DNA of 64,000 nt from a virus (taxonomy: Duplodnaviria > Heunggongvirae > Uroviricota > Caudoviricetes). The first letter of the stretch is position 1. The number at the start of each line of letters is the position of its first letter. The stretch is from IMG/VR virus record IMGVR_UViG_3300037471_001733, positions 22,201-86,200 of that record; one strand, 5' to 3'. The position numbers were made by a program, and so were the translations under genes. The notes under the pieces are model-generated. The model did no database searches. It was not told where the DNA came from and saw only the letters and a program-made list of their open reading frames with translations. This document shows, one piece after another, positions 11,482-57,249 of this stretch.

Positions 11482-11756
11482 TCGGCAGCCTTCCCGTCAC
11501 CGGCACGCGCGCGGATGCCCATCAGGCCCAGGCCCAGCGCCAGCAAGCCGCCGACGATGAAGCCAGCCGGCAGGGAGTACAGGCCGGTGCCATAGGCAAC
11601 AGCCCCGGCGCCGCCCAGCGCCAGCATGTCCGGCATCAGAAAGGCCAACAGTTCGCCGCCGGCCGCAATCAGGCCCAGCATGGCGCGGCCAAGGGTCAAC
11701 ATTCGGCGGGCCAGAAATGTCCTGGCACCGGCGATCTTCGTTCGCAGGTTTTTCAC
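11478..11756 (-). CDS. small membrane protein (hypothetical)
   Basis: 92 aa ORF with two hydrophobic helices between terminase and portal; overlaps both neighbours by 4 nt. Confidence 0.35.
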   Translation of the reverse strand: MKNLRTKIAGARTFLARRMLTLGRAMLGLIAAGGELLAFLMPDMLALGGAGAVAYGTGLYSLPAGFIVGGLLALGLGLMGIRARAGDGKAAE

Positions 11757-13513
11757 GGCGTCAGGACTTCCCAGAATGACTTTCCAGTGGACTCGGTGGT
11801 TCTGGACATCAAGCCCACGGCCATCACAGCCGCCACGATGAGGTCGATGCGGCCCGTGGCCTTTTCCTTGCTGAGCTTGCGGTTCTCGGCGTCATCCATC
11901 ACCGTCACCGCGTTGCTCGCACACCAGTTGAAAACTGGGTGGTCGTTGTGCGCCAACTCGTTGTTGAGCAGCATTCGCTCGAACTCTTCAACGGCTGGCG
12001 AAGCCTCTTTGTAACCTTGCCCGAACGCGACCATGGGCGGTAGGCTGATGCCTTCGTCGTCGGCAAGCGCCAGCAAGTCTTCGATGCGCCAGCGGTCGTA
12101 TGCGACGCCCTGGATCTCGAATGCCTCGGACAGCGCGGACAGCCGCTGCAGCACGTTGCGCTTGCTGATCGCGCGCCCCGGCGTGGTGTCCAAGTGCCCG
12201 GCAGCTTTCCACTGCACGTAGGGCACTCGATCGGTTTCGGCCTTCTTCTGCAGCCCCTCATCAGGCAGCCAGGCGAACGGCACTAGGTGCCACGGCTCGC
12301 CTTCCTCTTGCGGCTCAACCAGCAGCACCAGCCCCGTAAGGTCGGTGGTGGACGACAGGTCCAGCCCGGCCCAGGCTCGCCGGCCGCGCAGGTCTTGCCA
12401 GTTGAAGGTGCGAATCGCACTCTTCCAAACGTCGGCCGACAGCCACGGCGAATCGGCATCCGTCCACTGGCAGAAATTCAGCCGGCGGACGATCGCCTCC
12501 TTAGACGGCATGCCGCGCGCTTCGGTCACCTGCTCGCGCAGGTACTTCATGCCCGGCAGATCGGCGTCCTGCAGCGAAGGGTTGGCCTTCACCCAGCACG
12601 ACTCGTCCGAGAAAGGATCCTCGCCTTCATCTAGGGCGCACACGAAACTGAAGAACGCATCGTCCTCCAGCGTCCCCGCTGCGACCTTTGCGCCGTACTC
12701 GTGGTACGCCCAGCACGGCCCCCGTTTGTCGGAGCCGCTGTTGGTGATCATGAAGATCAGCGCCTGCCGCCGGCTCTTGGTGCCGGCGCGCATCATCTCC
12801 ACGACCGTGTTGGTCTTGTGCTCGTGCAGCTCGTCGATGAGCGCAATGTGCGGCCGCGGGCCGGACTGCCCATCGTCCGAGCTGATCGGGCGGAAGAAGC
12901 TGCCGGCCTGCAGGTAGGCCAGGTTCCACACCCGCTCGCCCGTGCCGCTCTTGGTCAGCCGCTTAGCGAGTTCCGGCGACTGGTCCACCATGGCCACCGC
13001 GTCGCGGAAGAGGATCATGGCCTGATCCTTCTTCGTCGCCGCAGCGTAGACCTCTGCGCGCGCCTCGCTGTCGGCGGTCAGGCCAAGAAGCCCAATGCCC
13101 GCCGAAAGGGGCGACTTCCCGGAGCCCTTGGCCGTCTCGACGTAGGCAACACGGAACCGCCGCCAGCCGTCAGAACCCTTCCAGCCGAACAGACTGCCGA
13201 TGACGAATTTCTGCCACGGCAGAAGCTCGAAGGGCTTTCCCTCAAAGTCGCCGCCGTTGAGCTTCAGGACGTTGCGGTAGTACCGCAGCGCCTTCAGGGC
13301 GGTCTCCAGGTCCCAATTCAGGCCGCGTGCCGGGCCTTTCTCCAGGTCGCGCAGGTGGCGCGCGCATGCCGCGCGCACATGCGGGCCGGCGATGCGTTTG
13401 CCGTCAACGACGGATTGGGCGTACTCGGTGACCGGATCGTCACCAGTCGGGACGTCAGCCGAAGAATTCCTGTAAGTGGTCTTCCTTTTGGTCGTCGTCG
13501 GCGTTTTGGACAT
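11753..13513 (-). CDS. terminase large subunit (Terminase_1 family)
   Basis: 586 aa; Walker A 'VETAKGSGKS', 'ALIDELHEH' and C-terminal nuclease region. Confidence 0.85.
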   Translation of the reverse strand: MSKTPTTTKRKTTYRNSSADVPTGDDPVTEYAQSVVDGKRIAGPHVRAACARHLRDLEKGPARGLNWDLETALKALRYYRNVLKLNGGDFEGKPFELLPWQKFVIGSLFGWKGSDGWRRFRVAYVETAKGSGKSPLSAGIGLLGLTADSEARAEVYAAATKKDQAMILFRDAVAMVDQSPELAKRLTKSGTGERVWNLAYLQAGSFFRPISSDDGQSGPRPHIALIDELHEHKTNTVVEMMRAGTKSRRQALIFMITNSGSDKRGPCWAYHEYGAKVAAGTLEDDAFFSFVCALDEGEDPFSDESCWVKANPSLQDADLPGMKYLREQVTEARGMPSKEAIVRRLNFCQWTDADSPWLSADVWKSAIRTFNWQDLRGRRAWAGLDLSSTTDLTGLVLLVEPQEEGEPWHLVPFAWLPDEGLQKKAETDRVPYVQWKAAGHLDTTPGRAISKRNVLQRLSALSEAFEIQGVAYDRWRIEDLLALADDEGISLPPMVAFGQGYKEASPAVEEFERMLLNNELAHNDHPVFNWCASNAVTVMDDAENRKLSKEKATGRIDLIVAAVMAVGLMSRTTESTGKSFWEVLTP

Positions 13514-13955
13514 GAACCTTGGACCTCGCGGCCGGCGTCAGCCCGAACTCGACCAGCCACGCCTTGAAGCGCCGGTCGGCATCGGCCAGCATGGCCACCG
13601 CCGGGTTCGCTTTGATGCTGCGGTCGCCCTGCGTGTTCGTTGTTTCGTAGGTAGGGCCGTCCTGGTTCACCAGTTCCTGATACCGCAGGATCTCGGCGTA
13701 CACGGCGCAGCCTCTCTCAAGGGCGTAGGCATCGGCCTCGGTTAGCACGCCCATCCGATCCAGCAGCACAGACATGCGGCCCCAGGCAACCTTGGCCTCG
13801 TCGGACAAGTGGCTGGGGCAACTAGGTATCTCGCGGCGTGGTTTGGGCTCGCTCTTGTTGAGCGCGCGCCTTCCCGGGTTGCCTGTAACTATTTTTAAGT
13901 GGCTCGGTTTTGGCCTGCGCCCCGCCATATCTCTATTCCTTGACTGGCCAGCCAT
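13455..13955 (-). CDS. terminase small subunit, P27 family
   Basis: 166 aa; 'KPSHLKIVTGNPGRRALN' N-terminus typical of P27-family TerS; precedes TerL. Confidence 0.7.
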   Translation of the reverse strand: MAGQSRNRDMAGRRPKPSHLKIVTGNPGRRALNKSEPKPRREIPSCPSHLSDEAKVAWGRMSVLLDRMGVLTEADAYALERGCAVYAEILRYQELVNQDGPTYETTNTQGDRSIKANPAVAMLADADRRFKAWLVEFGLTPAARSKVHVQNADDDQKEDHLQEFFG

Positions 13956-14214
13956 CCACCCCGATCACCGGCCGAACTCGATGACCTAGATCTCGCGCCG
14001 TTTTGTCACGGTGACAGGGGGTACATAGCCCCTGAGCCTGGCCCGGGTCTTCGTGGAAGTCCTTGCCGCCGTTGACTAGCGCGACTTTGTGGTCCAACTG
14101 AGTTGCGGCAGCAAGTCGGCCATGGCGTGAGCACTCAGCACAAAGCGGGTTCAGCCGCAAGTAGTAGTCGCGGAACCGCTGCAGCGGGCGGCCACGCAAG
14201 CGATCAGTGGCCAT
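13933..14214 (-). CDS. HNH endonuclease (terminase-associated)
   Basis: 93 aa; CxxC ... DHKVAL..GG ... CxxCH HNH motif; directly upstream of TerS. Confidence 0.7.
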   Translation of the reverse strand: MATDRLRGRPLQRFRDYYLRLNPLCAECSRHGRLAAATQLDHKVALVNGGKDFHEDPGQAQGLCTPCHRDKTARDLGHRVRPVIGVDGWPVKE

Positions 14215-14272: not shown

Positions 14273-14359
14273 TGGCGCGGACGGCTGGGCTCGAACCAGC
14301 GACCTGCAGCGCTGGTCTTTGCGAACCCGCTGCTTCTCTACCGGCTGAGATACGCCCGC
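14273..14359 (-). tRNA. tRNA-like gene, 87 nt with encoded CCA; canonical acceptor, D and T arms but aberrant extended anticodon arm (loop CGCAAA) - possible pseudo/unusual phage tRNA
   Basis: minus strand GCGGGCG-TA-TCTCAGCCGGTAGAGA-...-GCTGGTTCGAGCCCAGC-CGTCCGC-G-CCA; no 5bp/7nt anticodon arm can be folded. Confidence 0.4.
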
Positions 14360-14370
14360 GTCGGAAACGA

Positions 14371-14394
14371 AAAAGCCCGCGCGAGGCGGGCTTT
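14371..14394. terminator. bidirectional terminator-like hairpin (GCCCGC-GCGAG-GCGGGC flanked by A-run and T-run)
   Basis: seen in sequence between tRNA-like gene and Zn-ribbon/HNH gene. Confidence 0.5.
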
Positions 14395-14552
14395 GAGAAA
14401 TCTGCAGAGACACCTATCCCACGGACCTGTCGGAATTGGGATAGATTCACCGGGAGGCCGTAAGCGTAGCCGGCGTGGGCCAATTGTACGGCTTGTTGTC
14501 TTGCACACGCAACAGGGGCTGTCAAGGGCTCGCGAGCGACGCCCACATATCT

Positions 14553-15449
14553 CTATAACCCCAACTGCAGTTGACCAAGAGACTTGCTTCCCTTGGACCG
14601 GTTGCACCCAAAGCACTCGCACTGCGTGTTGCTATAGCTGTGTGGACCTCCATCGCGCAGGCTGACAACGTGACCAAGCTCCGGTGCGCCCTCAATCCTC
14701 TTGCCCATCTTCGACCTCGGCGTCTTAATGCCGCAAATCTTGCAGCGCCAGCCGTCGCGCTCAAAGACAGACAGCTTGTCCACCTTCTCGTACTCGCAGC
14801 CGAACTTTCTGGCGCGACGCCGATGCGTGGTGCCGCTAGTGGCTCTGTAACGGTAGCTCAGCTGACAGGCTATCGAGCAGTACTTTTGGCGCAGGTCGCC
14901 ATAGTCCGGCGTGAACGCAACTTCGCAGAAGCCGCACTTGCGAGGCGACCGGTCGCGGCTACGCTCTTGCTTCTTCCGATTGTAAACCTTGCTCCTGCAT
15001 TTGCTGCTACAGAAGTTCGCATCCGGCATCTTGGCCATGAAGTCGCGCCCGCAGGACGGGCTGGCGCAGACCCTGGCATAGCGCAGCTTATTCTGGCCGC
15101 GCTCCTTTTTCTCCGGCGCTGGAACGCACTCATAGCAGAACTTGCGCGGCTTGCCGTTCTTAAATAGTGGCTTTGGGTGGCGGCAGCCGTTTTCATTCCG
15201 GGTCCTGCACTCGTCGGAGCAATGACTGCGGCGCAGCTTCGTCGGCTTGAAGGGCATTCCACAGTAGGCGCATAACCGCGGCGGTTTCGGAGGCACGGGC
15301 GGATTCTTCCGTGGTCGTCCAGCGCCAGGACGGCGGCCGCCAGAGTTTGGACGCGGGCCACCGCGCTTTGAACGCGACGCCTCGACCAGTGCGCATAGCG
15401 CGCCTTTGCAGCCGCCAACAGACAGCCGCCTATACTCGCCTTCAACCAT
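14553..15449 (-). CDS. multi-zinc-ribbon protein with C-terminal HNH endonuclease domain
   Basis: 298 aa; at least 6 CxxC pairs, C-terminal 'ELGHVVSLRDGG...CECFGCNRSKGSK' HNH motif; AGGAAG RBS. Confidence 0.65.
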   Translation of the reverse strand: MVEGEYRRLSVGGCKGALCALVEASRSKRGGPRPNSGGRRPGAGRPRKNPPVPPKPPRLCAYCGMPFKPTKLRRSHCSDECRTRNENGCRHPKPLFKNGKPRKFCYECVPAPEKKERGQNKLRYARVCASPSCGRDFMAKMPDANFCSSKCRSKVYNRKKQERSRDRSPRKCGFCEVAFTPDYGDLRQKYCSIACQLSYRYRATSGTTHRRRARKFGCEYEKVDKLSVFERDGWRCKICGIKTPRSKMGKRIEGAPELGHVVSLRDGGPHSYSNTQCECFGCNRSKGSKSLGQLQLGL

Positions 15450-20340: not shown

Positions 20341-20453
20341 CCCCTTCCGGCGCACTCGCAAGGGTGCGCATTGCGATGCAGCCACGCGGAAGCATCGCAA
20401 TGCGCCAGCGCGCATAACGGCGCCGTCCCGGCTTGAGGCGGCAGGAGATTCAG

Positions 20454-22262
20454 ATGTCAGCACAAGACTTGATTGTTAGGATCAACGCAGCCGCCCAGGT
20501 GGCCCCGGAGCAACTGCCCAAAGGGGCGCAGCCGCGCGACCACATGATTGCCTTTGAGTACACCGACGCCCACGGCACGCGCGGCTGCATGCGCATCCTG
20601 AACACCCGGGCGCGGCTGCTGGCCTTCGCTGAGCAGGTGCGGAAGAACGCGGCAGCATTCGACGGCAAGCCGCGCAGCAAGCCCGCCGGGCCGCGCAAGA
20701 TTGCCGGCGCATCCCCGCTTTCCACGGCGCGCGCACTGCTCAAGGATGGCGCGCGGGTTGAAGCCCTCGCAGCGCTTGAGGCGCGCGGCGGGGAGGTGTT
20801 TTTCGGCGCCGCTGGCGTGCCTGTGCTGCATCAGGTTGCACAGCGCGTGGAGCACGAGGGCCGCCGCTGGGTTGTCACGCGCTGCGCCGTTGATGGTCTC
20901 ATCTACCTCATTCACGAGGCGTCCGGGCTGTCAGCAGGCGGCAAGGGCTTGCCTGAGATGCGCAGCATTGCGGATGCCCTGGCGCGGCTTGAGCTCGTGC
21001 ACCGGGACGAGGCGGAAAACGGCTACCGGCAGCGAATGATTGCTGCGATCGAGCAAGCGGCGGATTACGACCAGCAGGCGGCGCGCGCGGCTTTCGAGGC
21101 GTGCGATGGTCTCAAGAGCAAGGATGCCGCGCCGGTGGCTCAGGAAGCGTACCAGCAGGCGCGCGCGCTGTCGGCGGCGCAGGTGGCGCCCGATGTCGAG
21201 CCGGCAGTAGATGCAGACCCCTCCCCGGTGGAAAGCGAAGCCGAGGCGGCACCCCCTGTAGCGGAAACGCCTGCGGCAGCTGACACCCCTGCAGCGGAAA
21301 TCGAGTCCAGCGCGCCGGCGGTTGCGCCAGCATCCCCTCCGGCGGATTCACAGGCAGGCGCTGCACCCCCTGCGATGGAAAGCGCGCAGCCTGCGCCGCT
21401 TGCCACCGCGCCAGGCCGATCGGATGCGCTCATCGCGCGGGCCATCGCTTGGGTTGCCGTAGTCTGGGGAACCGCCAGCGTGCCGAGCGTTGCGGACTAC
21501 CGCGCCGGCCGGTGCGATGACACATTCCCGTGGGCGGGCGGCAGCCGCGCCGCCGGCTATCTGACATGGGCCGACCTCATTGGCGAGTGCATGGCCGCGC
21601 TGGAGCGCGACGACAGCGCCGACCAGGCGGCACGAGACGCCGCACTGCAACCACCGACCCCCATCCGTAGGAAAGGCCCGCGACAACATGAGCAGCACAC
21701 CCCATCCCGTGCAACCCGCAGTGCCAACCGGCCGCGAGTGGTGGACCCGCGGGCTGCTCGACTGGCACGCCGAGGCGCTGCACGCCGCCCAGGAGATCGC
21801 CGCGCTGCGCGAATCACTGGCTGCGGAGCGCGCAATGGTCCGCGAGCTGCAGGAGGCGCTCGCTGCCCGCCGGCAGGCCGCTTGACCCCTTCCCGGGGAA
21901 TCACGGCGCCACAAGCTTGCCGCCCCTGGCGCGACGCCAGCGAAACCCGAGACTGCACCCATAAAAACCTGGAGCACAGCATGACCTACACCGAAGCCAT
22001 CCAAGCCCTGCGCGACGCTATTGCGCAGGCCCCGAAGGGTGAAAAGCTGCAAGCCTTCCAAGCCAAGCGGGAGAAGATAATAGGGGCAATGCCCAAGGTG
22101 GAAATCTGTGGCGGCGAGCAGTGCATCCGCTATCCCAAGGGCTACCGCTTTGACTGCGGTCGCGAGGTCCACACGGACTGGATGTGGCAACCGTTTGCCA
22201 GCGAGGAAATCGCCATGCGGCCTGGCAACCTGCCGTACATCCTGCGCATGCCGGCTGCCTGA
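20454..22262 (+). CDS. iteron-containing ORF (candidate replication-initiator-like protein); 3' third is probably read-through overlapping two separately translated small genes
   Basis: ATG 20454 with AGGAG RBS; no in-frame stop until 22262; central P/A/E-rich linker encoded by iterons; Arg-rich junk-like translation 21650-21980. Confidence 0.4.
   Translation: MSAQDLIVRINAAAQVAPEQLPKGAQPRDHMIAFEYTDAHGTRGCMRILNTRARLLAFAEQVRKNAAAFDGKPRSKPAGPRKIAGASPLSTARALLKDGARVEALAALEARGGEVFFGAAGVPVLHQVAQRVEHEGRRWVVTRCAVDGLIYLIHEASGLSAGGKGLPEMRSIADALARLELVHRDEAENGYRQRMIAAIEQAADYDQQAARAAFEACDGLKSKDAAPVAQEAYQQARALSAAQVAPDVEPAVDADPSPVESEAEAAPPVAETPAAADTPAAEIESSAPAVAPASPPADSQAGAAPPAMESAQPAPLATAPGRSDALIARAIAWVAVVWGTASVPSVADYRAGRCDDTFPWAGGSRAAGYLTWADLIGECMAALERDDSADQAARDAALQPPTPIRRKGPRQHEQHTPSRATRSANRPRVVDPRAARLARRGAARRPGDRRAARITGCGARNGPRAAGGARCPPAGRLTPSRGITAPQACRPWRDASETRDCTHKNLEHSMTYTEAIQALRDAIAQAPKGEKLQAFQAKREKIIGAMPKVEICGGEQCIRYPKGYRFDCGREVHTDWMWQPFASEEIAMRPGNLPYILRMPAA
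21218..21385. repeat. iteron cluster B inside coding sequence: 4 repeats plus 1 degenerate copy (CCCCTCCCCGGTGGAAAGCG, CCCCCTGTAGCGGAAACGCC, CCCCTGCAGCGGAAATCG, CCCCCTGCGATGGAAAGCGC)
   Basis: 21218-21237, 21252-21270, 21286-21303, 21366-21385; degenerate 21334-21354; each encodes P-P/A-V/A-E-S/T. Confidence 0.6.
21688..21885 (+). CDS. small coiled-coil protein (65 aa), overlaps the long ORF in another frame
   Basis: AGGAAAGG RBS; ends in TGACCCCTTCC copy 3 (21883-21893). Confidence 0.45.
   Translation: MSSTPHPVQPAVPTGREWWTRGLLDWHAEALHAAQEIAALRESLAAERAMVRELQEALAARRQAA
21980..22262 (+). CDS. small Cys-containing protein (94 aa)
   Basis: internal ATG with GGAG RBS, same frame as long ORF, clean stop. 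Confidence 0.45.
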
Positions 22263-22345
22263 CGCATTGTCCGGTGGCGCAGCCTTTGGCGTTCAGCGCT
22301 ATTTGAACAAGGTGCGCGGTTTAGTTCAGGCGTACTTGAATAGCG

Positions 22346-22395
22346 CCCCCCCATGTAGTGAAAACAGGGCATCAACCCCATCCAGCGGATACAGG
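22346..22395. repeat. iteron cluster C (2 copies: CCCCCCCATGTAGTGAAAACAGGG, CCCCATCCAGCGGATACAGG)
   Basis: second copy overlaps RBS of next gene. Confidence 0.5.
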
Positions 22396-22404
22396 AGTCA
22401 AACC

Positions 22405-22695
22405 ATGGGAAGTATCAACCTCGGCCGCCACCACGTCGCCATCAGCGATCAATGGACGATCTACACCCCTGGCCTACCTGGCTGGCAGATGCTGGGCGTG
22501 ATCACCCGCAGCAAGGGTGGCGAGCAGATCACGAAGGCGCTGGCCCGCAGCCCGAAGGGCGAGCTCTGCGCGGTGCGTGGGCTGTCAGCCGAGCCGCTTG
22601 TCCAGCGAAAGGCTGAAGCGGCGCTGGCGGCTGCGATGCGCGAGGCCCATCCGGTGGAAACAGATGGCACCCATTCCGAGGGAAACAGGGCTTGA
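22405..22695 (+). CDS. hypothetical protein (96 aa) with C-terminal iteron-encoded tail
   Basis: AGGAG RBS; last 15 codons are iteron cluster D. Confidence 0.5.
   Translation: MGSINLGRHHVAISDQWTIYTPGLPGWQMLGVITRSKGGEQITKALARSPKGELCAVRGLSAEPLVQRKAEAALAAAMREAHPVETDGTHSEGNRA
22646..22690. repeat. iteron cluster D (2 copies: CCCATCCGGTGGAAACAG, CCCATTCCGAGGGAAACAGGG)
   Basis: seen in sequence. Confidence 0.5.
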
Positions 22696-22719
22696 ATATG
22701 TAGGTTAAGCGCCTACACT
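22692..22719 (+). promoter_or_regulatory. promoter/operator O3 (-35 TTGAAT, 16-nt spacer containing TGTAGGTTAAGCGCCTACA, -10 TACACT); predicted leaderless start at ATG 22726
   Basis: third TGTAG-N9-CTACA palindrome with same architecture as O1/O2; -10 ends 6 nt before ATG, no RBS. Confidence 0.5.
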
Positions 22720-22725
22720 GGCATC

Positions 22726-22956
22726 ATGAGCACCTTACCGCCGCGCACGCCAGAGAACATCAAAGCCTTCCGCCAGCGTGCCGGCTGGACGCAGGAGAAG
22801 GCATGCGAGATGGCGTGCATCCACGACCGCCAAACCTGGCGTAAGTACGAAAACGGCACGCTCAAGATGAGCGAAGAGCGCTGGCGGCTGGCGCACTTTA
22901 TGGCCAACCTGCACCCCGACTTCGACGTTCGGCCGCGTACCAAGGCTGCGGCCTAG
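22726..22956 (+). CDS. XRE-family helix-turn-helix regulator (candidate repressor of the TGTAG-N9-CTACA operators)
   Basis: 76 aa; 'IKAFRQRAGWTQEKACEMACIHDRQTWRKYENG' HTH_XRE signature. Confidence 0.7.
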   Translation: MSTLPPRTPENIKAFRQRAGWTQEKACEMACIHDRQTWRKYENGTLKMSEERWRLAHFMANLHPDFDVRPRTKAAA

Positions 22957-22989
22957 CCTTCGCCCTCTGAGTACCGCCGGGAGGCGGCG

Positions 22990-23334
22990 TCAACCGTTTG
23001 GGTTCTGTGCCAGCCAAGCCCGGATCATCGCCTTGACCGCGGCGTGCAGGCCGTGTGGCGCGTAGACGCCACGCACTTCCTCGATACCTCTTTCCTTGAG
23101 CAGGGCCCTTCTTGCTCGATTCCTCTCTGTCGAGCTCTTCCCCGAAGGGGCTTTCGCGGTGGCGTTCATGAGCAGTTCCGTGCCATCGATTTTCTTCTCA
23201 GGCAAGGAGCAGGGGGCCAGTTCGCACTCTGCGGGAGCATTTGAGGGGGGCGGTTTGTTCTCGACCATTTGGCATTGACCCGTCGCGCGCGACGGTCCAT
23301 CATTCTTCGCTTTTCGACGATCAGAAGCCGCCAT
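22990..23334 (-). CDS. ribbon-helix-helix-like small DNA-binding protein (start possibly internal at ~23166)
   Basis: 'KSSTERNRARRALLKERGIEEVRGVYAP' resembles RHH/antitoxin-like S.AER.R.YR.R....G...V.VW.P motif. Confidence 0.45.
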   Translation of the reverse strand: MAASDRRKAKNDGPSRATGQCQMVENKPPPSNAPAECELAPCSLPEKKIDGTELLMNATAKAPSGKSSTERNRARRALLKERGIEEVRGVYAPHGLHAAVKAMIRAWLAQNPNG

Positions 23335-23433
23335 AAGTTGTGATGCGGCCGGAGTGCGCTAGTTGCAAGAACTATCAATTGGCATTCTCAAGGCGCAAGC
23401 GTGTCTTGCCAAGACTTTGTTGCACAGAGAGCG

Positions 23434-23449
23434 GCATGGATGCCGCTTT
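23434..23449. promoter_or_regulatory. perfect 16-bp palindrome GCGGCAT-GG-ATGCCGC in divergent intergenic region
   Basis: seen in sequence. Confidence 0.35.
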
Positions 23450-23568
23450 TGCGTTTGTGCAATCACCTCGAAAGGTTCCTGCCAGAGGATGCCGCCGATT
23501 GCCCACTATGGGGCAGGAACCAGTTCCACAATCGAAGCGCCACGCACTACGAAGAGTGGAGTTGCGCC

Positions 23569-24279
23569 ATGGACTGCGGCAAGAGAAGAACATGGGAGTG
23601 TGGCGTGACAACGAACTCTAAGAGGCTTTCTGGTAGACCATCTTTTAATTGGTCTATACCTGAGCCAGAAGAAGTTAAAGAAGTTAGATTGAAAGCCAAT
23701 TTGTCTCAGAGAGAAGCTTGTAATCTTTCTGGGATTAAAGAAGTAATGACTTGGAGTAATTGCGAAACTAGGAGAGCCGATGGCACTCCTAAGGCCCGCA
23801 TGGACCCAATTAGATGGGAATATTTCCTTCTAATAGTTGGACAACATTCCAAATTCGTTATTCTTCCGAGACTCGGGGTTGAACAGCCAAGAGAGGCGGC
23901 AGCTTTAACTAGGAAAGGTCCGTCTCTGCCTGGGGAGAACATTACTTTCGCAGTCGAGAGCCGAACTAGTGAAGACGAGTGGCGCTTGGTAGAAGGCGGA
24001 CAGTTCACAGCTCTGACTGCGGCATGTGTGGCCATAGACACGATGGTTGCCTGCAGGAACCTAAATGAACTAAGGGTGTCGCGTTACTCAGGTGGCGACT
24101 TCGTGATGGCAGTGCATGGGCCTGGTGTCTCTATGGACGAAGGCCCGAAGCGTTTTACCCATGCAAAGGCTGCGCCATCTCGAAGGACTGGGACTGACAG
24201 GAACGGAGCAGACCCAGGAGACCCAGATAATGATGGAAATGGAAGCAGAAATTCCAATGGTTTCGACCCTCAGGATTGA
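23569..24279 (+). CDS. HTH_XRE-domain protein with uncharacterised approx. 150-aa C-terminal domain, encoded in a low-GC island
   Basis: GGAG RBS; 'VKEVRLKANLSQREACNLSGIKEVMTWSNCE' HTH; AGA/AGG/TCT/AAT-rich codon usage unlike the rest of the window. Confidence 0.6.
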   Translation: MDCGKRRTWECGVTTNSKRLSGRPSFNWSIPEPEEVKEVRLKANLSQREACNLSGIKEVMTWSNCETRRADGTPKARMDPIRWEYFLLIVGQHSKFVILPRLGVEQPREAAALTRKGPSLPGENITFAVESRTSEDEWRLVEGGQFTALTAACVAIDTMVACRNLNELRVSRYSGGDFVMAVHGPGVSMDEGPKRFTHAKAAPSRRTGTDRNGADPGDPDNDGNGSRNSNGFDPQD

Positions 24280-52484: not shown

Positions 52485-53357
52485 GTGCGGCGGCGTGTGC
52501 TGCCAGCCGCTCTTTCTTTTGATGGCAACTGCGAAAACCCCGGGGCTACGAGCGCGGCCAGCAGAGCCGCGCCGCCAGCCCCACCAACCAACTACAGCGA
52601 GATTCACGTGATCCACTACCACGGACTGCCGATTACGCCGGACACGGCAGCAGAGCGTGCTATTGCTGGCGGCCATGCGTTTGTGTCATTCGCGCACCCT
52701 GAGCAATTGGGTCTCGCTGCGGCTGTGGCGCAATCATTCGCCATTGATAACGGCGCGTTCTCGGCTTGGCGGGCCGGCCGTCCGGTAACGGACTGGACGC
52801 CTTTCTACGAATGGGCTGCCGCAGCCAAGCGCATCCCTGGCTGCGACTTCGCCGTCATACCTGATGTCATTGACGGCACTGAGGCTGACAACGATGCGTT
52901 GCTTGCCGAGTGGCCGCTGCCCAACTGGTTCGGGGCGCCCGTGTGGCACATGAACGAGGGCCTGGATCGCCTGGAGCGCTTGGCCACCGTCTTCCCTCGC
53001 GTGTGCATCGGCAGTTCTGGCGAGTTCGCAATGGTGGGAACGCCGACGTGGTGGGGCCAGATCGCCCGCGCCATGCGTGTTGTGTGCGACGACGATGGGC
53101 GCCCGATGTGCAGGCTCCATGGCCTGCGCATGCTGGACCCGGAAGTGTTCAAGCATCTCCCGTTTTCCAGCGCAGACAGCACGAATATCGGCCGCAACAT
53201 TGGCATCGATCAAGCTTGGCGCGGCACCTATACGCCGCCGACGAAAGAGGCGCGGGCAGCTGTCATGCGCTCGCGCATTGAGGCTGAGAACGCGCCAGCA
53301 CGCTGGGCGTTTCGCATCCCCGAGTTCCATCCTGAAGACCAAGGGAGCCTGCTGTGA
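52485..53357 (+). CDS. candidate DpdA-like DNA (7-deazaguanine) transglycosylase (TGT-like); start uncertain
   Basis: directly upstream of queC-queE-queD with 4-nt overlap; 'IDNGAFS' resembles TGT catalytic 'DSGGFQ' motif. Confidence 0.45.
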   Translation: MRRRVLPAALSFDGNCENPGATSAASRAAPPAPPTNYSEIHVIHYHGLPITPDTAAERAIAGGHAFVSFAHPEQLGLAAAVAQSFAIDNGAFSAWRAGRPVTDWTPFYEWAAAAKRIPGCDFAVIPDVIDGTEADNDALLAEWPLPNWFGAPVWHMNEGLDRLERLATVFPRVCIGSSGEFAMVGTPTWWGQIARAMRVVCDDDGRPMCRLHGLRMLDPEVFKHLPFSSADSTNIGRNIGIDQAWRGTYTPPTKEARAAVMRSRIEAENAPARWAFRIPEFHPEDQGSLL

Positions 53358-53890
53358 GCAAAGTTATCCTGTTGTCCGGCGGCCTGGATTCCGCCCTGTG
53401 CTTGGCTCGCTACGGCGCCGACTTGGCCATTGGCTTCAATTACGGACAGCCGCATGCGATTGAGTTGGCCCATGCCGAGCGCATTGCAAGGCAGCACGGC
53501 GTGCCTTTCGAGATCCATGCGCTGCCGACCATGCCGCGCGTCAACGACGTCGTCTTCGCCGGCCGCAATGCGGTGATGCTGACGGCAGCCGCAGCCATTG
53601 CTCAGGCGCGCGGCCACGACGCGGTGTTGATCGGCTGCAACTTCTCGGATGCCACCCGGTTTCCTGACTGCCGGCCGGAATTCATTCGCAACATCAGCAA
53701 GGCGCTTGAGTCGGCATATGGCGTAAGCGTCTGCGCGCCGCTGCTGTTGTCCACCAAGACGCAGATAGTGGCAGAGGCCAAGCAACGCGGCATCACGGAC
53801 ACCTGGACCTGTTACGCGCCCACAACTGATGGTCAGCAGTGCGGCCAGTGCTACTCCTGCCAGGGCATCGCCTCAGCGAGCGCGTCATGA
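53354..53890 (+). CDS. queC: 7-cyano-7-deazaguanine synthase QueC (short form)
   Basis: PP-loop 'LLSGGLDS', C-terminal Cys cluster CGQCYSCQ. Confidence 0.75.
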   Translation: MSKVILLSGGLDSALCLARYGADLAIGFNYGQPHAIELAHAERIARQHGVPFEIHALPTMPRVNDVVFAGRNAVMLTAAAAIAQARGHDAVLIGCNFSDATRFPDCRPEFIRNISKALESAYGVSVCAPLLLSTKTQIVAEAKQRGITDTWTCYAPTTDGQQCGQCYSCQGIASASAS

Positions 53891-54507
53891 CCTATACCGT
53901 CAAGGAGATCTTCTACACGCTGCAGGGCGAGGGCTTGCACGCCGGGCGCCCAGCGGTGTTCTGCCGCTTCGCCGGGTGCAACCTGTGGAGCGGGCGTGAG
54001 CAGGACAGGAGCAAGGCGGCATGCCGTTTCTGCGACACCGAGTTCCGCGGCGGCACGAAGTACCGCACGCCCGAGGATTTGGCTGATGCCATTGAGCAGG
54101 CGTGGGCGCCGCAGGTGGTGGCCCGACGCATGGTGGTGCTCACCGGCGGCGAGCCGGCGCTGCAGGTGGATCAGGCGCTTGTGCACTTGCTGCAGGCCCG
54201 CGGGTTCTATGTCGCCATCGAGACGAACGGCACCAAGGAACTGCCGCAGGGTCTGGATTGGGTGTGCGTGAGCCCCAAGGGCGATGAGCCGCTGCGTGTG
54301 GTGCATGGCAACGAGCTGAAGCTGGTGTACCCGCAGATGCTGGCACTGCCGCAGCGGTTTGAGGAGTTGGCCTTCGACCACTTCCTTCTGCAGCCCATGG
54401 ACGGCCCGTTCCTTGAGGCCAACACCCAGGCTGCCATCGAGTTCTGCATGGGCAACCCAAAGTGGCGGCTCTCGGTGCAGACCCACAAGTACATCGGAGT
54501 GCGCTGA
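53887..54507 (+). CDS. queE: 7-carboxy-7-deazaguanine synthase QueE (radical SAM)
   Basis: 'IFYTLQGEGLHAGRPAVFCRFAGCNLW' QueE N-terminal signature. Confidence 0.8.
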   Translation: MTYTVKEIFYTLQGEGLHAGRPAVFCRFAGCNLWSGREQDRSKAACRFCDTEFRGGTKYRTPEDLADAIEQAWAPQVVARRMVVLTGGEPALQVDQALVHLLQARGFYVAIETNGTKELPQGLDWVCVSPKGDEPLRVVHGNELKLVYPQMLALPQRFEELAFDHFLLQPMDGPFLEANTQAAIEFCMGNPKWRLSVQTHKYIGVR

Positions 54508-54509
54508 CC

Positions 54510-54965
54510 ATGCCCACCACCATCATGAAACGCCTGGAGTTCGACGCCGGGCACCGCATCCCCAACCACGCCAGCAAGTGCCGCAACCTGCACGGCCACA
54601 GGTACGCGCTGGAAATCACGCTGGTGGGCGAGCCCATCGACGCCCCCGGCACCAGCAGCCACGGGATGCTGGAGGACTTCAGCGACGTGAAGCGCTTGGC
54701 GATGGAGCACCTCGTGGAGCCCTGGGACCACGCTTTCCTGGTGTACGAGGGCGACACGCAGGTGCTGGCGCTGCTGGCCGCGCTGCCCGGCCACAAGACC
54801 GTGGTGCTGCCGCGCGTGCCCACGGCCGAGAACCTCGTGGCGCTGGCCTTTGAAACGCTGGCGCCGATCTACACCGACCGCTTCGGCAACGGGCTGCGCC
54901 TGGAGCGCGTGCGCCTGTGGGAAACGCCGACGTGCTGGGCGGACTTCAGTTCCACAACCAACTGA
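54510..54965 (+). CDS. queD: 6-carboxy-5,6,7,8-tetrahydropterin synthase QueD
   Basis: 'RLEFDAGHRIPNHASKCRNLHGHRYALEI' QueD/PTPS signature. Confidence 0.75.
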   Translation: MPTTIMKRLEFDAGHRIPNHASKCRNLHGHRYALEITLVGEPIDAPGTSSHGMLEDFSDVKRLAMEHLVEPWDHAFLVYEGDTQVLALLAALPGHKTVVLPRVPTAENLVALAFETLAPIYTDRFGNGLRLERVRLWETPTCWADFSSTTN

Positions 54966-54973
54966 CGAGCACC

Positions 54974-56038
54974 ATGTTCAAAAACTTGACCTTGTTGCGC
55001 ATCAGCAGCGACTGGCTGCCCGATGCCATCGCTGCCGAGGACCAGCTGGCGCGCGAGCCCTTCACCGCCTGCGGTGCGACACAACCCGCGAGTGCTGGCT
55101 GGGTGCCGCCGCGAGGTGTGCCGCATGCGCCGCTGCTGGAGGTCATCGGCGGCCATTGGATTCTGTCGTTGATGTCAGAGCGCCGGCTGCTGCCCGGATC
55201 TGTCATCAAGGACCGCGTTGCCGAGATGACTGCCGAGTTCGAGAAGGCCAACGGCTACAAGGTCGGCAAGCGCCAGCGCAAGGAACTGGTGGCGCAGGCC
55301 GAGCAGGAGTTGCTGCCGAAGGCATTCACGAAACGCTCGCTGACCAAGGTGTGGCTCGACCCCCGCGCCCGCCTCCTAGCGGTCGACACCGGCAGCGCCA
55401 GCGCGGCCGAGTCTGTGGTTTCGATGCTGGTCAAGAGCCTGGACGGCTTTGGTGTGCAGCCTGTGACGACTTGGCTGGCGCCGGCCGGCGCGATGGCGGC
55501 TTGGATCAGCGAAGGCTGCGCGCCAAGCGGCTTCAGCCTGGACCGCGAGTGCGAGCTCAAGTCCACGGACGAGATGAAGAGCGTCGTCCGCTACGCCCGC
55601 CACTCGCTGGACAACGATGACGTGCGCCGCCACATCGCATCCGGCAAGCGCCCGACGCGCCTGGCGCTGTCCTGGGGCGACCGCGTGGCGTTCACCTTGA
55701 CCGATGGGCTTGTGCTCAAGCGCATCGAGTTTCTTGACGTCGCCATGGAAGGCCGCTCCGAAGTGGACGCGGCAGAGGCCTTTGACGCTGATGCTGCTAT
55801 CGCCTGCGGCGAGCTCAGCCGCCTGATACCGGATCTGCTGGCGGCGCTTGGTAACGAGGCTGAGCAGTCGCGCATCCACGAGGAAGAATCCAGCCCCAAG
55901 GCTGCGCTACAGGACCCCGCAGTGCCGAATTTGGACCACATCAGTACATCAGCGCTCTACTTGGCAGCGCAGGTGGAGCAGCAGATGGCTCCGATACGCG
56001 CGGCCCTGTCCGAGACTGCAGGAGCCGCCAAGGCATGA
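54974..56038 (+). CDS. rdgC: recombination-associated protein RdgC
   Basis: 'MFKNLTLLRIS...GWVPP...VIKDRVAEM...' collinear with RdgC. Confidence 0.75.
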   Translation: MFKNLTLLRISSDWLPDAIAAEDQLAREPFTACGATQPASAGWVPPRGVPHAPLLEVIGGHWILSLMSERRLLPGSVIKDRVAEMTAEFEKANGYKVGKRQRKELVAQAEQELLPKAFTKRSLTKVWLDPRARLLAVDTGSASAAESVVSMLVKSLDGFGVQPVTTWLAPAGAMAAWISEGCAPSGFSLDRECELKSTDEMKSVVRYARHSLDNDDVRRHIASGKRPTRLALSWGDRVAFTLTDGLVLKRIEFLDVAMEGRSEVDAAEAFDADAAIACGELSRLIPDLLAALGNEAEQSRIHEEESSPKAALQDPAVPNLDHISTSALYLAAQVEQQMAPIRAALSETAGAAKA

Positions 56039-56616
56039 GCCTGCACATCGTCCCGATCACGCTTGAGCAGGCCAAGAGGTTCGTGCGCCGGCACCACCGC
56101 CACAACAAGCCGCCCACGGGCTGGAAGTTCGGCGTGGGCCTGTGCCACAGCGCCGGGCCGCTAGTGGGAGTGGCGACCGCTGGGCGCCCGGTGTCGCGCG
56201 AGATCCAGGAGCGCGAGCCGCTGACGCTGGAGGTCAACCGCACGTGCACGGACGGCACGCGCAACGCCAACTCGATGCTCTACGGCGCGATCTGGCGCGC
56301 GGCCAAGGCCCTGGGCTACACGCGCGCCATCACCTACATCCAAGGCAACGAGACGGGCGCCTCGCTCAAGGCTGCGGGCTGGGTGAAGGTGCGCGACCTA
56401 GATGCGCGCGGCTCCTGGAAGGAGTCGAGCAAGAAGTTGGCGCACCTGCGCGACGACGAGGGCACGGGCGGCGTGGCGCGGCAGCTGTGGGAAATCCGCG
56501 CTGCGACCGCCGGCCCAGTGGTGCTGCCCGACCTGGGCGCCGACGACGATCTGACAGACGACACAGAAGACCCCACGGGCGACTTGTTCGCCGAAGCTGA
56601 AGGAGAGCCCGCATGA
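56035..56616 (+). CDS. hypothetical protein
   Basis: 193 aa. Confidence 0.4.
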   Translation: MSLHIVPITLEQAKRFVRRHHRHNKPPTGWKFGVGLCHSAGPLVGVATAGRPVSREIQEREPLTLEVNRTCTDGTRNANSMLYGAIWRAAKALGYTRAITYIQGNETGASLKAAGWVKVRDLDARGSWKESSKKLAHLRDDEGTGGVARQLWEIRAATAGPVVLPDLGADDDLTDDTEDPTGDLFAEAEGEPA

Positions 56617-56774
56617 CCATCGTCGCCCGCCAACCCATCCGCCAAGCCTTCAAGGCCGCCCTCAAGATCGACCCGCACAAGACGCTGGAGCAGTGCATCG
56701 AGGACGCCATCCAGACCGTCGCCAAGGAGCGACGCCTGCCGGCCGAGTTGGTGCGGCAGGCCATTGAGGACTGA
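56613..56774 (+). CDS. small hypothetical protein
   Basis: 53 aa. Confidence 0.3.
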   Translation: MTIVARQPIRQAFKAALKIDPHKTLEQCIEDAIQTVAKERRLPAELVRQAIED

Positions 56775-56778
56775 CACC

Positions 56779-57249
56779 ATGAGCACGAATCCCATTGCCT
56801 CCATCACCGAGTGGATGGATGGAGCAGGCCACGGACCCGAGAGCCTGCCGCTGTACTTCGCTCTGACGCTGGAAGAAGGCGGGCAGGAGATGCTGGACCC
56901 GGTGTCGCTGCTGCACCCCAACGACAGGGTTGAGCCCACCGAAAGGCTTGGACTGATGCTGAAGAACCTGAGCCGAATGATCCGCAACGGCGATGTGCGC
57001 TTGGATGTGGCCAACCGCGCGGAGCTACTGGATGCAGCGCTGGACACCGCCTGGGTTGCCCTGTGCCTGGCGCGCACGCTCACCGGCGACAGGCTGGGAG
57101 AGGCTTGGGCGGAACTGCATCGCAGCAACGTGACGGACAAGCAGCAGGACGGCGTGTTCGTCAAGGACGCATCAGGCAAGGTCTGCAAGCCGAATGGCTA
57201 CAGAGGCCCGAACTTCGCGCAGTTCCTATTAGCGGCAAAGACTAGTTGA
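56779..57249 (+). CDS. possible MazG-like NTP pyrophosphohydrolase
   Basis: 156 aa, GAGGA RBS; all-helical with acidic motifs; assignment tentative. Confidence 0.35.
   Translation: MSTNPIASITEWMDGAGHGPESLPLYFALTLEEGGQEMLDPVSLLHPNDRVEPTERLGLMLKNLSRMIRNGDVRLDVANRAELLDAALDTAWVALCLARTLTGDRLGEAWAELHRSNVTDKQQDGVFVKDASGKVCKPNGYRGPNFAQFLLAAKTS

Follow-up and report, generated by a model that had tools for sequence, protein, structure and literature searches.

A Prophage tRNA-Like Gene with a Double-Length Anticodon Arm, Probably a Working tRNA Look-Alike

A tRNA Body with a Lengthened Anticodon Arm

The late (packaging) operon of a prophage in IMG/VR record IMGVR_UViG_3300037471_001733 opens with a gene of 87 nt, on the coding strand, whose product would combine the body of a tRNA with an anticodon arm of double length. 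The gene occupies the minus strand of positions 14273–14359 of the window, by which we mean the whole stretch of 64,000 nucleotides analysed here (positions 22,201 to 86,200 of the record), and reads GCGGGCGTATCTCAGCCGGTAGAGAAGCAGCGGGTTCGCAAAGACCAGCGCTGCAGGTCGCTGGTTCGAGCCCAGCCGTCCGCGCCA. Judged from its own sequence and those of its relatives, it is probably a working tRNA look-alike and not a dead gene. By the same comparison, the full cloverleaf, added helix included, is held together by compensatory substitutions. No single excision restores an anticodon loop with U33, and no repeat marks an attachment (att) site, which together argue for a selected, non-decoding derivative of a tRNA. Our preferred interpretation, held tentatively and with somewhat less than even confidence, is that of a phage-borne, tRNA-derived structured RNA that would retain the whole tRNA body without decoding, and that would most likely act as a body mimic, decoy or sponge for a host tRNA-binding factor.

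By its fold, the element is a tRNA. The Rfam tRNA model RF00005 matched it end to end at 48.7 bits, above the gathering threshold of 29 (E = 2.2e-7 over the 64-kb window), and this was the sole Rfam family match in the window. Covariance-model scoring, which the first-pass annotation of this DNA had proposed as a check, thus supports its tRNA character. The element has acceptor, D and T stems of 7, 4 and 5 bp, and the tertiary positions of a class-I tRNA (U8, A14, G15/C48, G18G19, G46, T54–A58 and G53–C61) were all present on inspection, including the conserved T54–C56 and A58. A9 and A26 are present as well, and a variable loop of sequence AGGTC carries G46 and C48. The first-pass annotation had described the acceptor, D and T arms as perfect; the D and T arms are indeed intact, but one of the seven acceptor pairs is G5·U68, so that this stem is only nearly perfect. 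The encoded CCA that it had listed is present, preceded by G73.

The anticodon arm departs from this pattern. Its stem, GCAGC/GCTGC, encloses 18 nt (GGGTTCGCAAAGACCAGC) in place of the usual 7-nt loop, and the RF00005 alignment treats these as an 18-nt insert in the anticodon loop. Folded alone, the 28-nt arm formed a helix of 6 bp and, beyond a 3′-side AG bulge, a second one of 4 bp (GGTT/GACC) that is capped by the 6-nt loop CGCAAA; its energy was −13.9 kcal/mol (z = −2.5 against shuffles). This is exactly the extended, bulged stem for which the element had initially been labeled a non-canonical tRNA. A decoding tRNA requires a stem of 5 to 6 bp and, in a loop of 7 nt, both U33 and a purine at position 37; here, the arm has 10 bp plus the AG bulge, and its 6-nt loop lacks U33. 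Because its arm lacks these defining features, the element should not be filed as a decoding tRNA. It would also normally stay unannotated, since default ARAGORN reported zero tRNAs in the window and an Rfam run with default speed filters overlooked it.

Compensatory Changes Preserve the Fold

Relatives were searched for in IMG/VR, the JGI metagenomes, GTDB genomes and Logan/ENA contigs. There are three distinct family members, two of them independent of the window: the window element, a divergent copy of the same architecture on an IMG/VR contig with a TerS terminase protein 82% identical to that of the window (L003, the same as L084), and a copy on a Logan contig with a small HNH endonuclease 88% identical (L125). 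A Logan assembly (L001) holds a copy identical to the window element and possibly from the same organism. RF00005 scores of the relatives ranged from 37.8 to 50.9 bits (L003, 50.9; L125, 39.6), and all three family members lay above the gathering threshold. A sequencing indel, raised in the first-pass annotation as something that might conceal a standard arm, does not explain the structure, given the copies in L001 and the divergent L003. Exact and degenerate DNA patterns of the arm and the 3′ half recovered only the L003 contig from IMG/VR, and the 3′-half pattern gave no new family member among the JGI matches listed, most of which were att remnants or canonical tRNAs for Arg, Gly and Ile. 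No long-arm element was present at 31 TerS-relative loci (one genome per GTDB species), L125 was the only new member on the contigs of ten HNH homologues, and the match among GenBank phages was confined to the T arm/acceptor of a Pseudomonas-phage tRNA-Asn (88%).

The window element and L003 differ by 19 substitutions and one inserted A, a divergence of 22%. Twelve of the substitutions fall in paired columns, yet 25 of the 26 pairs are kept, four of them through double compensatory changes: U10–A25 to G–C in the D stem, U51–A63 to C–G in the T stem, and A–U to C–G and G–C to C–G in the outer helix of the arm. Other pairs changed from G5·U68 to A–U and, in the inner helix, from U–A to U·G and from U·G to C–G; the sole pair lost in L003 is 27–43, now G·A. 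When 19 substitutions were placed at random (200,000 trials), at least 25 pairs were kept in 0.016% of the simulations (P = 1.6e-4), and in 0.0005% (5e-6) given 12 stem hits. The flanking non-coding DNA is only ≈65% identical and has many indels. Within the element, the arm evolved about twice as fast as the body (9 substitutions and one indel in 28 nt against 10 substitutions in 59 nt in the window–L003 alignment), while nine of its ten pairs were kept, two of them by double compensatory changes. That the arm diverges fast yet stays paired indicates that the integrity of the helix, and not the sequence of the arm, is constrained.

In L125, the same body carries an arm consisting of an uninterrupted 8-bp helix (GGTTGCGG/CCGCAGCC) and a 9-nt loop (CCUGAUGUA). 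The outer helices of the three members differ from one another, and all are perfectly or nearly perfectly paired (window, GCAGC/GCTGC; L003, GCCCC/GGGGA; L125, GGTTG/CAGCC). Because MAFFT could not keep the L125 arm in register, the three-way arm pair counts were made by hand. Read in this way, the five core-proximal pairs are G–C, C–G, A–U, G–C and C–G in the window, G·A, C–G, C–G, C–G and C–G in L003, and G–C, G–C, U·G, U–A and G–C in L125, and one outer-helix position has three different Watson–Crick pairs across the three members. CCA is encoded in the window and in L125, and is replaced by GCCC in L003.

These substitutions bear directly on the possibility of a decaying pseudo-tRNA, that is, a phage tRNA-Thr that was inactivated by insertions in its anticodon arm and has not yet eroded. 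The first-pass annotation, which had listed a pseudo-tRNA among its suggestions, was right in so far as the element cannot decode. In addition, the gene is absent from the closest sequenced prophage, and the family is rare, amounting to the three distinct copies across all of the collections searched (among the matches listed in the case of JGI). In a pseudogene, however, substitutions would ignore pairing, whereas those that separate the window from L003 are compensatory (P about 1e-4) and lie between poorly conserved, indel-rich flanks, which argues against a decaying gene. Furthermore, three different outer helices have all remained paired, and a symmetric gain of 5 nt per strand is not expected from random decay. 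We consider decay to be quite unlikely.

Descent from a Threonine tRNA

A candidate parent surfaced among the JGI matches listed for the 3′-half pattern. This metagenomic phage tRNA array (L241) encodes Thr-CGU, Thr-GGU, Asn, Gly-UCC, Arg and Gln, and its canonical tRNA-Thr(GGU) is identical to the window element over the 5′ 9 nt and the 3′ 33 nt, which comprise the variable loop, T arm, acceptor strand and GCCA. The anticodon arm of this tRNA reads CGGCC-UUGGUAA-GGCCG, and remnants of it are present in the inner hairpins of the family, as AAGGCC in L003 (GGUC-AGCCAA-GGCC) and as CGGCCT in L125 (CGG-CCUGAUGUA-CCG, starting CGGCCU); the inner hairpin of the window is GGUU-CGCAAA-GACC. These identities show that the element descends from a phage gene of the tRNA-Thr(GGU) type, and its inner hairpin looks like the old anticodon arm. 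In the simplest history, a 5-bp helix would have been gained on the core side of the old anticodon stem, and the old loop would then have degenerated, leaving the former stem-loop as the 4-bp helix and 6-nt loop without U33. The origin of the symmetric 5 + 5-nt gain is unexplained by this history.

If the extra helix were removed from the transcript, or if the long arm were tolerated and its tip loop read a codon, the gene could still encode an intron-containing or unconventional decoding tRNA. When introns were allowed, ARAGORN called a “tRNA-Glu(UUC) plus 9-nt intron”, the 4-bp helix between bulge and loop resembles an archaeal bulge-helix-loop, and the tip loops of L125 and of another odd tRNA-like gene, in L015, hold anticodon-loop-like heptamers (CUGAUGU and CUAAGAA). 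However, the ARAGORN solution has G33 and an intron at 39/40, and the bulge is 2 nt long and not 3. By enumeration, no contiguous excision from the 18-nt insert of the window or the 19-nt insert of L003, in either stem register, yields a 7-nt loop with U33. Thus, of the features of an intron of the bulge-helix-bulge (BHB) or 37/38 type (two 3-nt bulges, or a bulge and a loop, on either side of a 4-bp helix, and splicing that recreates a canonical anticodon loop), the 4-bp helix is present, but the bulge is short and a canonical loop cannot be recovered in the window or L003. The TerS relatives, from Burkholderiales, Pseudomonas and Enterobacterales, indicate a bacterial host lineage, and we know of no BHB splicing endonuclease in those bacteria (Proteobacteria). 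A gapped-pattern scan of IMG/VR for tRNA bodies with 23–50 nt between the D and T arms offers a further comparison: its giant-virus matches all had clean 37/38 introns (CUGUAA–intron–A for Tyr, CUGUUA–intron–A for Asn), whereas the arms of ≈40 distinct phage contigs did not, with the exception of L145. Finally, the longest anticodon stems in working tRNAs are 6 bp (PMC7609411). With its 10-bp arm, its 6-nt loop without U33 and no excision that restores a 7-nt loop, the “unusual decoding” suggested in the first-pass annotation is unlikely, and we regard the intron and decoding alternatives together as very improbable.

Optional Cargo in a tRNA Slot

Along the minus strand, a 298-aa HNH gene is followed by a promoter-like stretch and structured leader, an intrinsic terminator, the tRNA-like gene, a 58-nt spacer, a 93-aa HNH gene, TerS, TerL, the portal gene and other head genes (Table 1). 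No sigma-70 consensus promoter was found between the terminator and the RNA gene, so transcription of the latter must pass through the leader terminator.

Among named genomes, the closest TerS is that of an Azohydromonas aeria (Burkholderiales) prophage. In the Azohydromonas prophage L094 (the same as L004), the promoter-like region, leader, terminator and HNH gene are kept, but the tRNA-like gene is absent: the HNH start codon lies 14 nt past the T tract, and the ≈145 nt that carry the gene are missing. A related prophage with the same leader thus does without the element, which identifies it as optional cargo. The junction GGGCTTTTTCGTTTCC precedes tRNA or tRNA-like genes in L003, L125, L015, L045, L067, L344, L392, L425 and L437, and the ordinary tRNAs found in the same slot are initiator-like Met-CAU, Trp-CCA, Arg-UCU, Gly-UCC and Ser-UGA. 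Such tRNAs are the kind of cargo reported to counter tRNA-cleaving defences (PMC11555353). Among 80 IMG/VR loci picked solely by TerS similarity, a normal tRNA was found upstream of TerS in three and a non-canonical tRNA in seven (five distinct).

In several diverged phages (L015, L045, L067, L344/L346, L392, L425 and L437), the terminator hairpin and TTTTTCGTTTCC are followed immediately by a tRNA gene, and L015 and L020 have a second terminator 3′ of the tRNA-like gene. The recurring junction suggests a conserved insertion point or cassette. Other odd tRNA-like genes occupy the same slot in L015 (1554–1640), with an 8-bp stem and the 8-nt loop CCUAAGAA; in L020/L028/L029 (97 nt), with a 27-nt insert whose inner hairpin changes G·U to G–C between copies; and in L067/L068 (691–795), in a 101-nt class-II-like form that Rfam did not match. 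In L125, a normal tRNA-Gly(UCC) at 313–387 precedes the long-arm element by 1 nt, so that the two genes make up a mini-array; the L241 array likewise combines Thr(GGU) and Gly(UCC).

The element lies at most 13 nt past the leader terminator, 58 nt ahead of the HNH start and without a promoter of its own, a position that would also suit a cis-acting processing or stability module. The tRNA-like fold would then be a cleavage signal only, for RNase P (and the 3′-end enzymes), that splits the leader/terminator RNA from the HNH–terminase mRNA or leaves a stabilising structured 5′ end, the arm being an inert hairpin. Consistent with such a module, the arm sequence is poorly conserved while its pairing is kept, metagenomic relatives include a body without any anticodon arm (L245), and no trans target or partner gene was found. 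However, the Azohydromonas leader runs straight into the HNH gene, so that processing is not required there. Conservation also extends to the tertiary nucleotides, the D arm and the encoded CCA, when the acceptor/T minihelix alone would suffice for RNase P, and ordinary decoding tRNAs fill the same slot in relatives. On this evidence, a cis-acting module is possible but rather unlikely.

Phages integrate at tRNA genes, and the cos (packaging) sites of HNH-dependent phages lie near such a position; both facts count in favor of a DNA-level origin, either as a tRNA-derived att remnant or as a packaging signal that just happens to look like a tRNA. The element, however, is a complete cloverleaf with both acceptor strands and not a 3′ fragment, whereas the true att remnants in the metagenome scan consist of the 3′ half of a tRNA joined to unrelated DNA. 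Within the 64-kb window, which does not reach the prophage ends, the 3′ half of the element is present a single time. The element is located in the middle of the late region instead of at a prophage end, it is absent from the same spot in the related prophage, and the compensatory changes obey RNA pairing rules, G·U included. The att remnant proposed in the first-pass annotation is thus unsupported, and we consider either DNA-level origin to be extremely improbable.

Table 1. Positions in the window of the tRNA-like gene, its parts and its neighbors.
Feature	Position	Strand	Evidence or remark
tRNA-like RNA gene, 87 nt incl. encoded G73-CCA	14273–14359	−	Sequence and RF00005 match
Acceptor stem, 5′ strand GCGGGCG	14353–14359	−	Partner CGTCCGC at 14277–14283; G5·U68 is A–U in L003
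Acceptor 3′ strand, discriminator G73 and encoded CCA	14273–14283	−	Read from sequence
D arm, TCTC-AGCCGGTA-GAGA	14335–14350	−	U10–A25 is compensatory G–C in L003
T arm, GCTGG-TTCGAGC-CCAGC	14284–14300	−	U51–A63 is C–G in L003
Double-length anticodon arm: outer helix GCAGC/GCTGC, G–C pair, 3′-side AG bulge, inner GGTT/GACC, loop CGCAAA	14306–14333	−	Minimum free energy fold of isolated arm; pairing in relatives
Intrinsic terminator of late leader, AAAGCCCGCC-TCGCG-CGGGCTTT and T tract TTCGTTTCCG	14362–14394 (hairpin 14372–14394)	−	Terminator scan; ends 2–13 nt before RNA gene
Promoter-like region and structured leader: TTGACA, palindrome TTGCGTGTGCAA, TACAAT, two hairpins	14398–14530	−	Conserved in Azohydromonas prophage L094; leader fold z = −2.9
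93-aa HNH endonuclease, first protein gene downstream	13933–14214	−	PHROG HNH, 2e-18
TerS, P27 type	13455–13955	−	phrog_83, 1e-46
TerL	11753–13513	−	Terminase matches in GenBank phages
298-aa HNH endonuclease, upstream of leader	14553–15449	−	phrog_1271, 5e-23

The leader is shared by the window (14398–14530, minus strand) and the Azohydromonas prophage (L094, 3480–3690). Its TACAAT box lies 31 nt from TTGACA and is followed by two hairpins and the intrinsic terminator. The region has no match in Rfam, and resembles a late promoter that depends on an activator and is joined to an antitermination leader of the put or Q type. Two different HNH genes (13933–14214 and 14553–15449) flank the leader and tRNA-like gene. 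The small HNH protein is the usual packaging partner of TerS/TerL, and the 298-aa protein may be a homing-type enzyme of the free-standing kind. Elsewhere, too, the window is phage-like: it encodes RecT, a YqaJ exonuclease, RdgC, a DnaC-like loader, QueC/QueE/QueD and a Mom-like protein, and we read the window as one large lambdoid prophage. Positions 53354–57249 (plus strand) encode QueC, a radical-SAM QueE-like protein, QueD (PTPS), RdgC, the Mom-like protein (phrog_1384, 6.5e-37) and a MazG-like pyrophosphatase. Together they probably form a DNA hypermodification module of the 7-deazaguanine/Mom type; among the window open reading frames (ORFs) tested, there was no DpdA/TGT-like tRNA-guanine transglycosylase to act as a partner for QueCDE. 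A 609-aa ORF at 20433–22262 (plus strand), on the opposite strand to the flanking phage genes, has 69% GC and no Pfam or PHROG match, and is followed by a dip to 58% GC (region 22001–24000); it could be a moron or defence gene.

A Possible tRNA-Body Mimic

The RNA would be produced solely by late transcription that continues past the leader terminator. RNase P and the 3′-end and CCA enzymes recognise the acceptor/T minihelix and the elbow; both are intact here, and read-through transcripts should therefore release a stable RNA of 84–87 nt, excised like a tRNA by RNase P and 3′ trimming. This RNA would accumulate as a stable, L-shaped species with an anticodon limb about half a helical turn too long for the ribosome, where the extra five pairs and the bulge would misplace its two ends. 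Since charging by enzymes of the threonyl-tRNA synthetase type relies on anticodon bases, it is probably uncharged. The disabled arm would exclude it from translation and offer no cleavable anticodon loop. The mimic could occupy a tRNA-binding factor without being consumed or disturbing translation. The proposed target is a tRNA-targeting defence nuclease, a toxin, or another tRNA-binding enzyme. Neutralisation of tRNA-cleaving defences by phage tRNAs has been reported (PMC11555353). We prefer a trans-acting mimic because the element is dispensable in a close relative, shares its slot with accessory tRNAs, and conserves more of the tRNA than RNase P needs. Of the earlier suggestions, that of a regulatory RNA comes nearest, a regulatory or other structured RNA being what the evidence favors.

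Several observations weigh against a decoy. A decoy role does not obviously call for a long arm, and a cis-acting RNase P processing site would equally explain the selection on the fold. No tRNA-targeting system was identified in the window, and no Pfam family recurred around 40 long-arm loci, where GNAT and ANT were found three times each in 149 ORFs. The literature was searched without finding a precedent for a phage tRNA decoy of such shape or for phage tRNAs with 8–10-bp anticodon arms. The comparison itself involves just the three distinct family members, of which two are independent of the window, and the L125 arm cannot be aligned base for base with those of the window and L003.

Other roles for the arm were also considered. 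An antisense search with the arm on both strands of the window gave just 10–11-nt chance matches. A kink-turn was dropped by eye, there being no tandem G·A pairs, and so was a boxB-like element, as the loop is not a GNRA-like pentaloop. A Ro-binding Y RNA was dropped since no TROVE protein was seen among the ORFs scanned.

Long-Arm tRNA-Like Genes in Other Phages

The gapped-pattern scan of IMG/VR described above returned ≈40 distinct phage contigs (within L129–L204, e.g., L145, L162, L169, L175, L179, L202 and L143/L180) in which tRNA bodies carry long paired arms from which, L145 excepted, no anticodon loop can be recovered, and many of these contigs are unrelated to one another; this class of long-arm genes is defined by one sequence pattern together with visual and minimum free energy inspection of the arms. 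Examples include a 10-bp stem (L175), GAAA-capped hairpins (L179 and L202) and a 9-bp stem with a bulged A (L145). L143 and L180 share an arm while having completely different, fully paired acceptor stems. In L245 (about position 1675, minus strand), the tRNA body has no anticodon arm (GAGC-ACCGG-AGGTC), and two genes of a phage tRNA array (L088, 7821–7896 and 8750–8819) have an arm of 7 bp that closes on a 3-nt loop, or one cut to 14 nt. In a roughly random 0.93-Mb sample of viral contigs, a strict scanner gave 15 tRNA-like matches (11 canonical class-I, two class-II and two doubtful) and no long-arm elements, which suggests that the type is uncommon overall but concentrated at particular loci.

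These genes may belong to a class of phage non-coding RNAs that has gone unrecognised, in which the arm of a tRNA body would have been lengthened or closed to avoid translation. Carried as accessory cargo by the side of counter-defence tRNAs, they would act on host factors that sense tRNAs or attack them, either as inhibitors or as decoys that cannot be cleaved. Such a class would have ≈40 members in IMG/VR, invisible to default finders. We put this forward as a possibility that is, on balance, doubtful. Phage tRNAs are now viewed as weapons against tRNA-cleaving immunity, beyond their help with codon usage, and a selected, non-decoding tRNA-shaped RNA would, if real, extend this to a second mode, in which an RNA mimics the body of a tRNA. 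Long-arm genes fall into an annotation blind spot, being passed over by standard tRNA finders and by Rfam scans run with filters, and in the TerS-related phage group examined such genes are at least as frequent as normal tRNAs at the locus. The family also amounts to a natural experiment on which tRNA parts are needed for processing and stability rather than decoding, and to a natural counterpart of the engineered “tRNA scaffold”.

Comparison with Known Systems

The concepts nearest to the window element, non-decoding pseudo-tRNAs and the tRNA-like modules of Y RNAs, tmRNA and the T4 stable RNAs, share neither its architecture nor its genomic setting. YrlA (a bacterial Y RNA), the tRNA-like domain of tmRNA, and the stable RNAs C and D of phage T4 have an acceptor/T/D core that is read by RNase P and tRNA enzymes and, like the window element, have the anticodon limb replaced by another helix. 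They differ in that both ends of the YrlA RNA lie within its long helix, in a permuted topology, and in that tmRNA lacks a D arm and contains an mRNA part. No Rfam model other than that for tRNA matches the window element.

The Bacillus cereus pseudo-tRNA “tRNA-Other” is not known to carry an extra helix in its anticodon arm. It is likewise tRNA-shaped and outside translation, with a physiological effect, but its gene is chromosomal and neighbors a genomic island instead of belonging to a phage late operon, and it has no sequence relationship to the window element (PMC3399842). In the intron-containing pre-tRNAs of archaea, eukaryotes and giant viruses, extra anticodon-loop nucleotides also pair to lengthen the arm, with a 4-bp helix next to a bulge. 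The window element differs from these in its bulge size, its bacterial host and the absence of an excision that gives a canonical loop. tRNA-Sec, tRNA-Pyl and mitochondrial tRNA-Ser depart from the 5-bp anticodon stem too, but they have 6 bp with compensation elsewhere, retain a 7-nt loop and decode, whereas the window element has 10 bp on a standard body (PMC7609411). Ordinary phage tRNAs, such as the Thr(GGU) of L241, share with it the acceptor, D and T arms, the tertiary nucleotides, the G73-CCA end and the genomic slot; at 87 nt instead of 75–76, the window element is set apart from them by its 10-bp bulged arm, which presents no readable anticodon.

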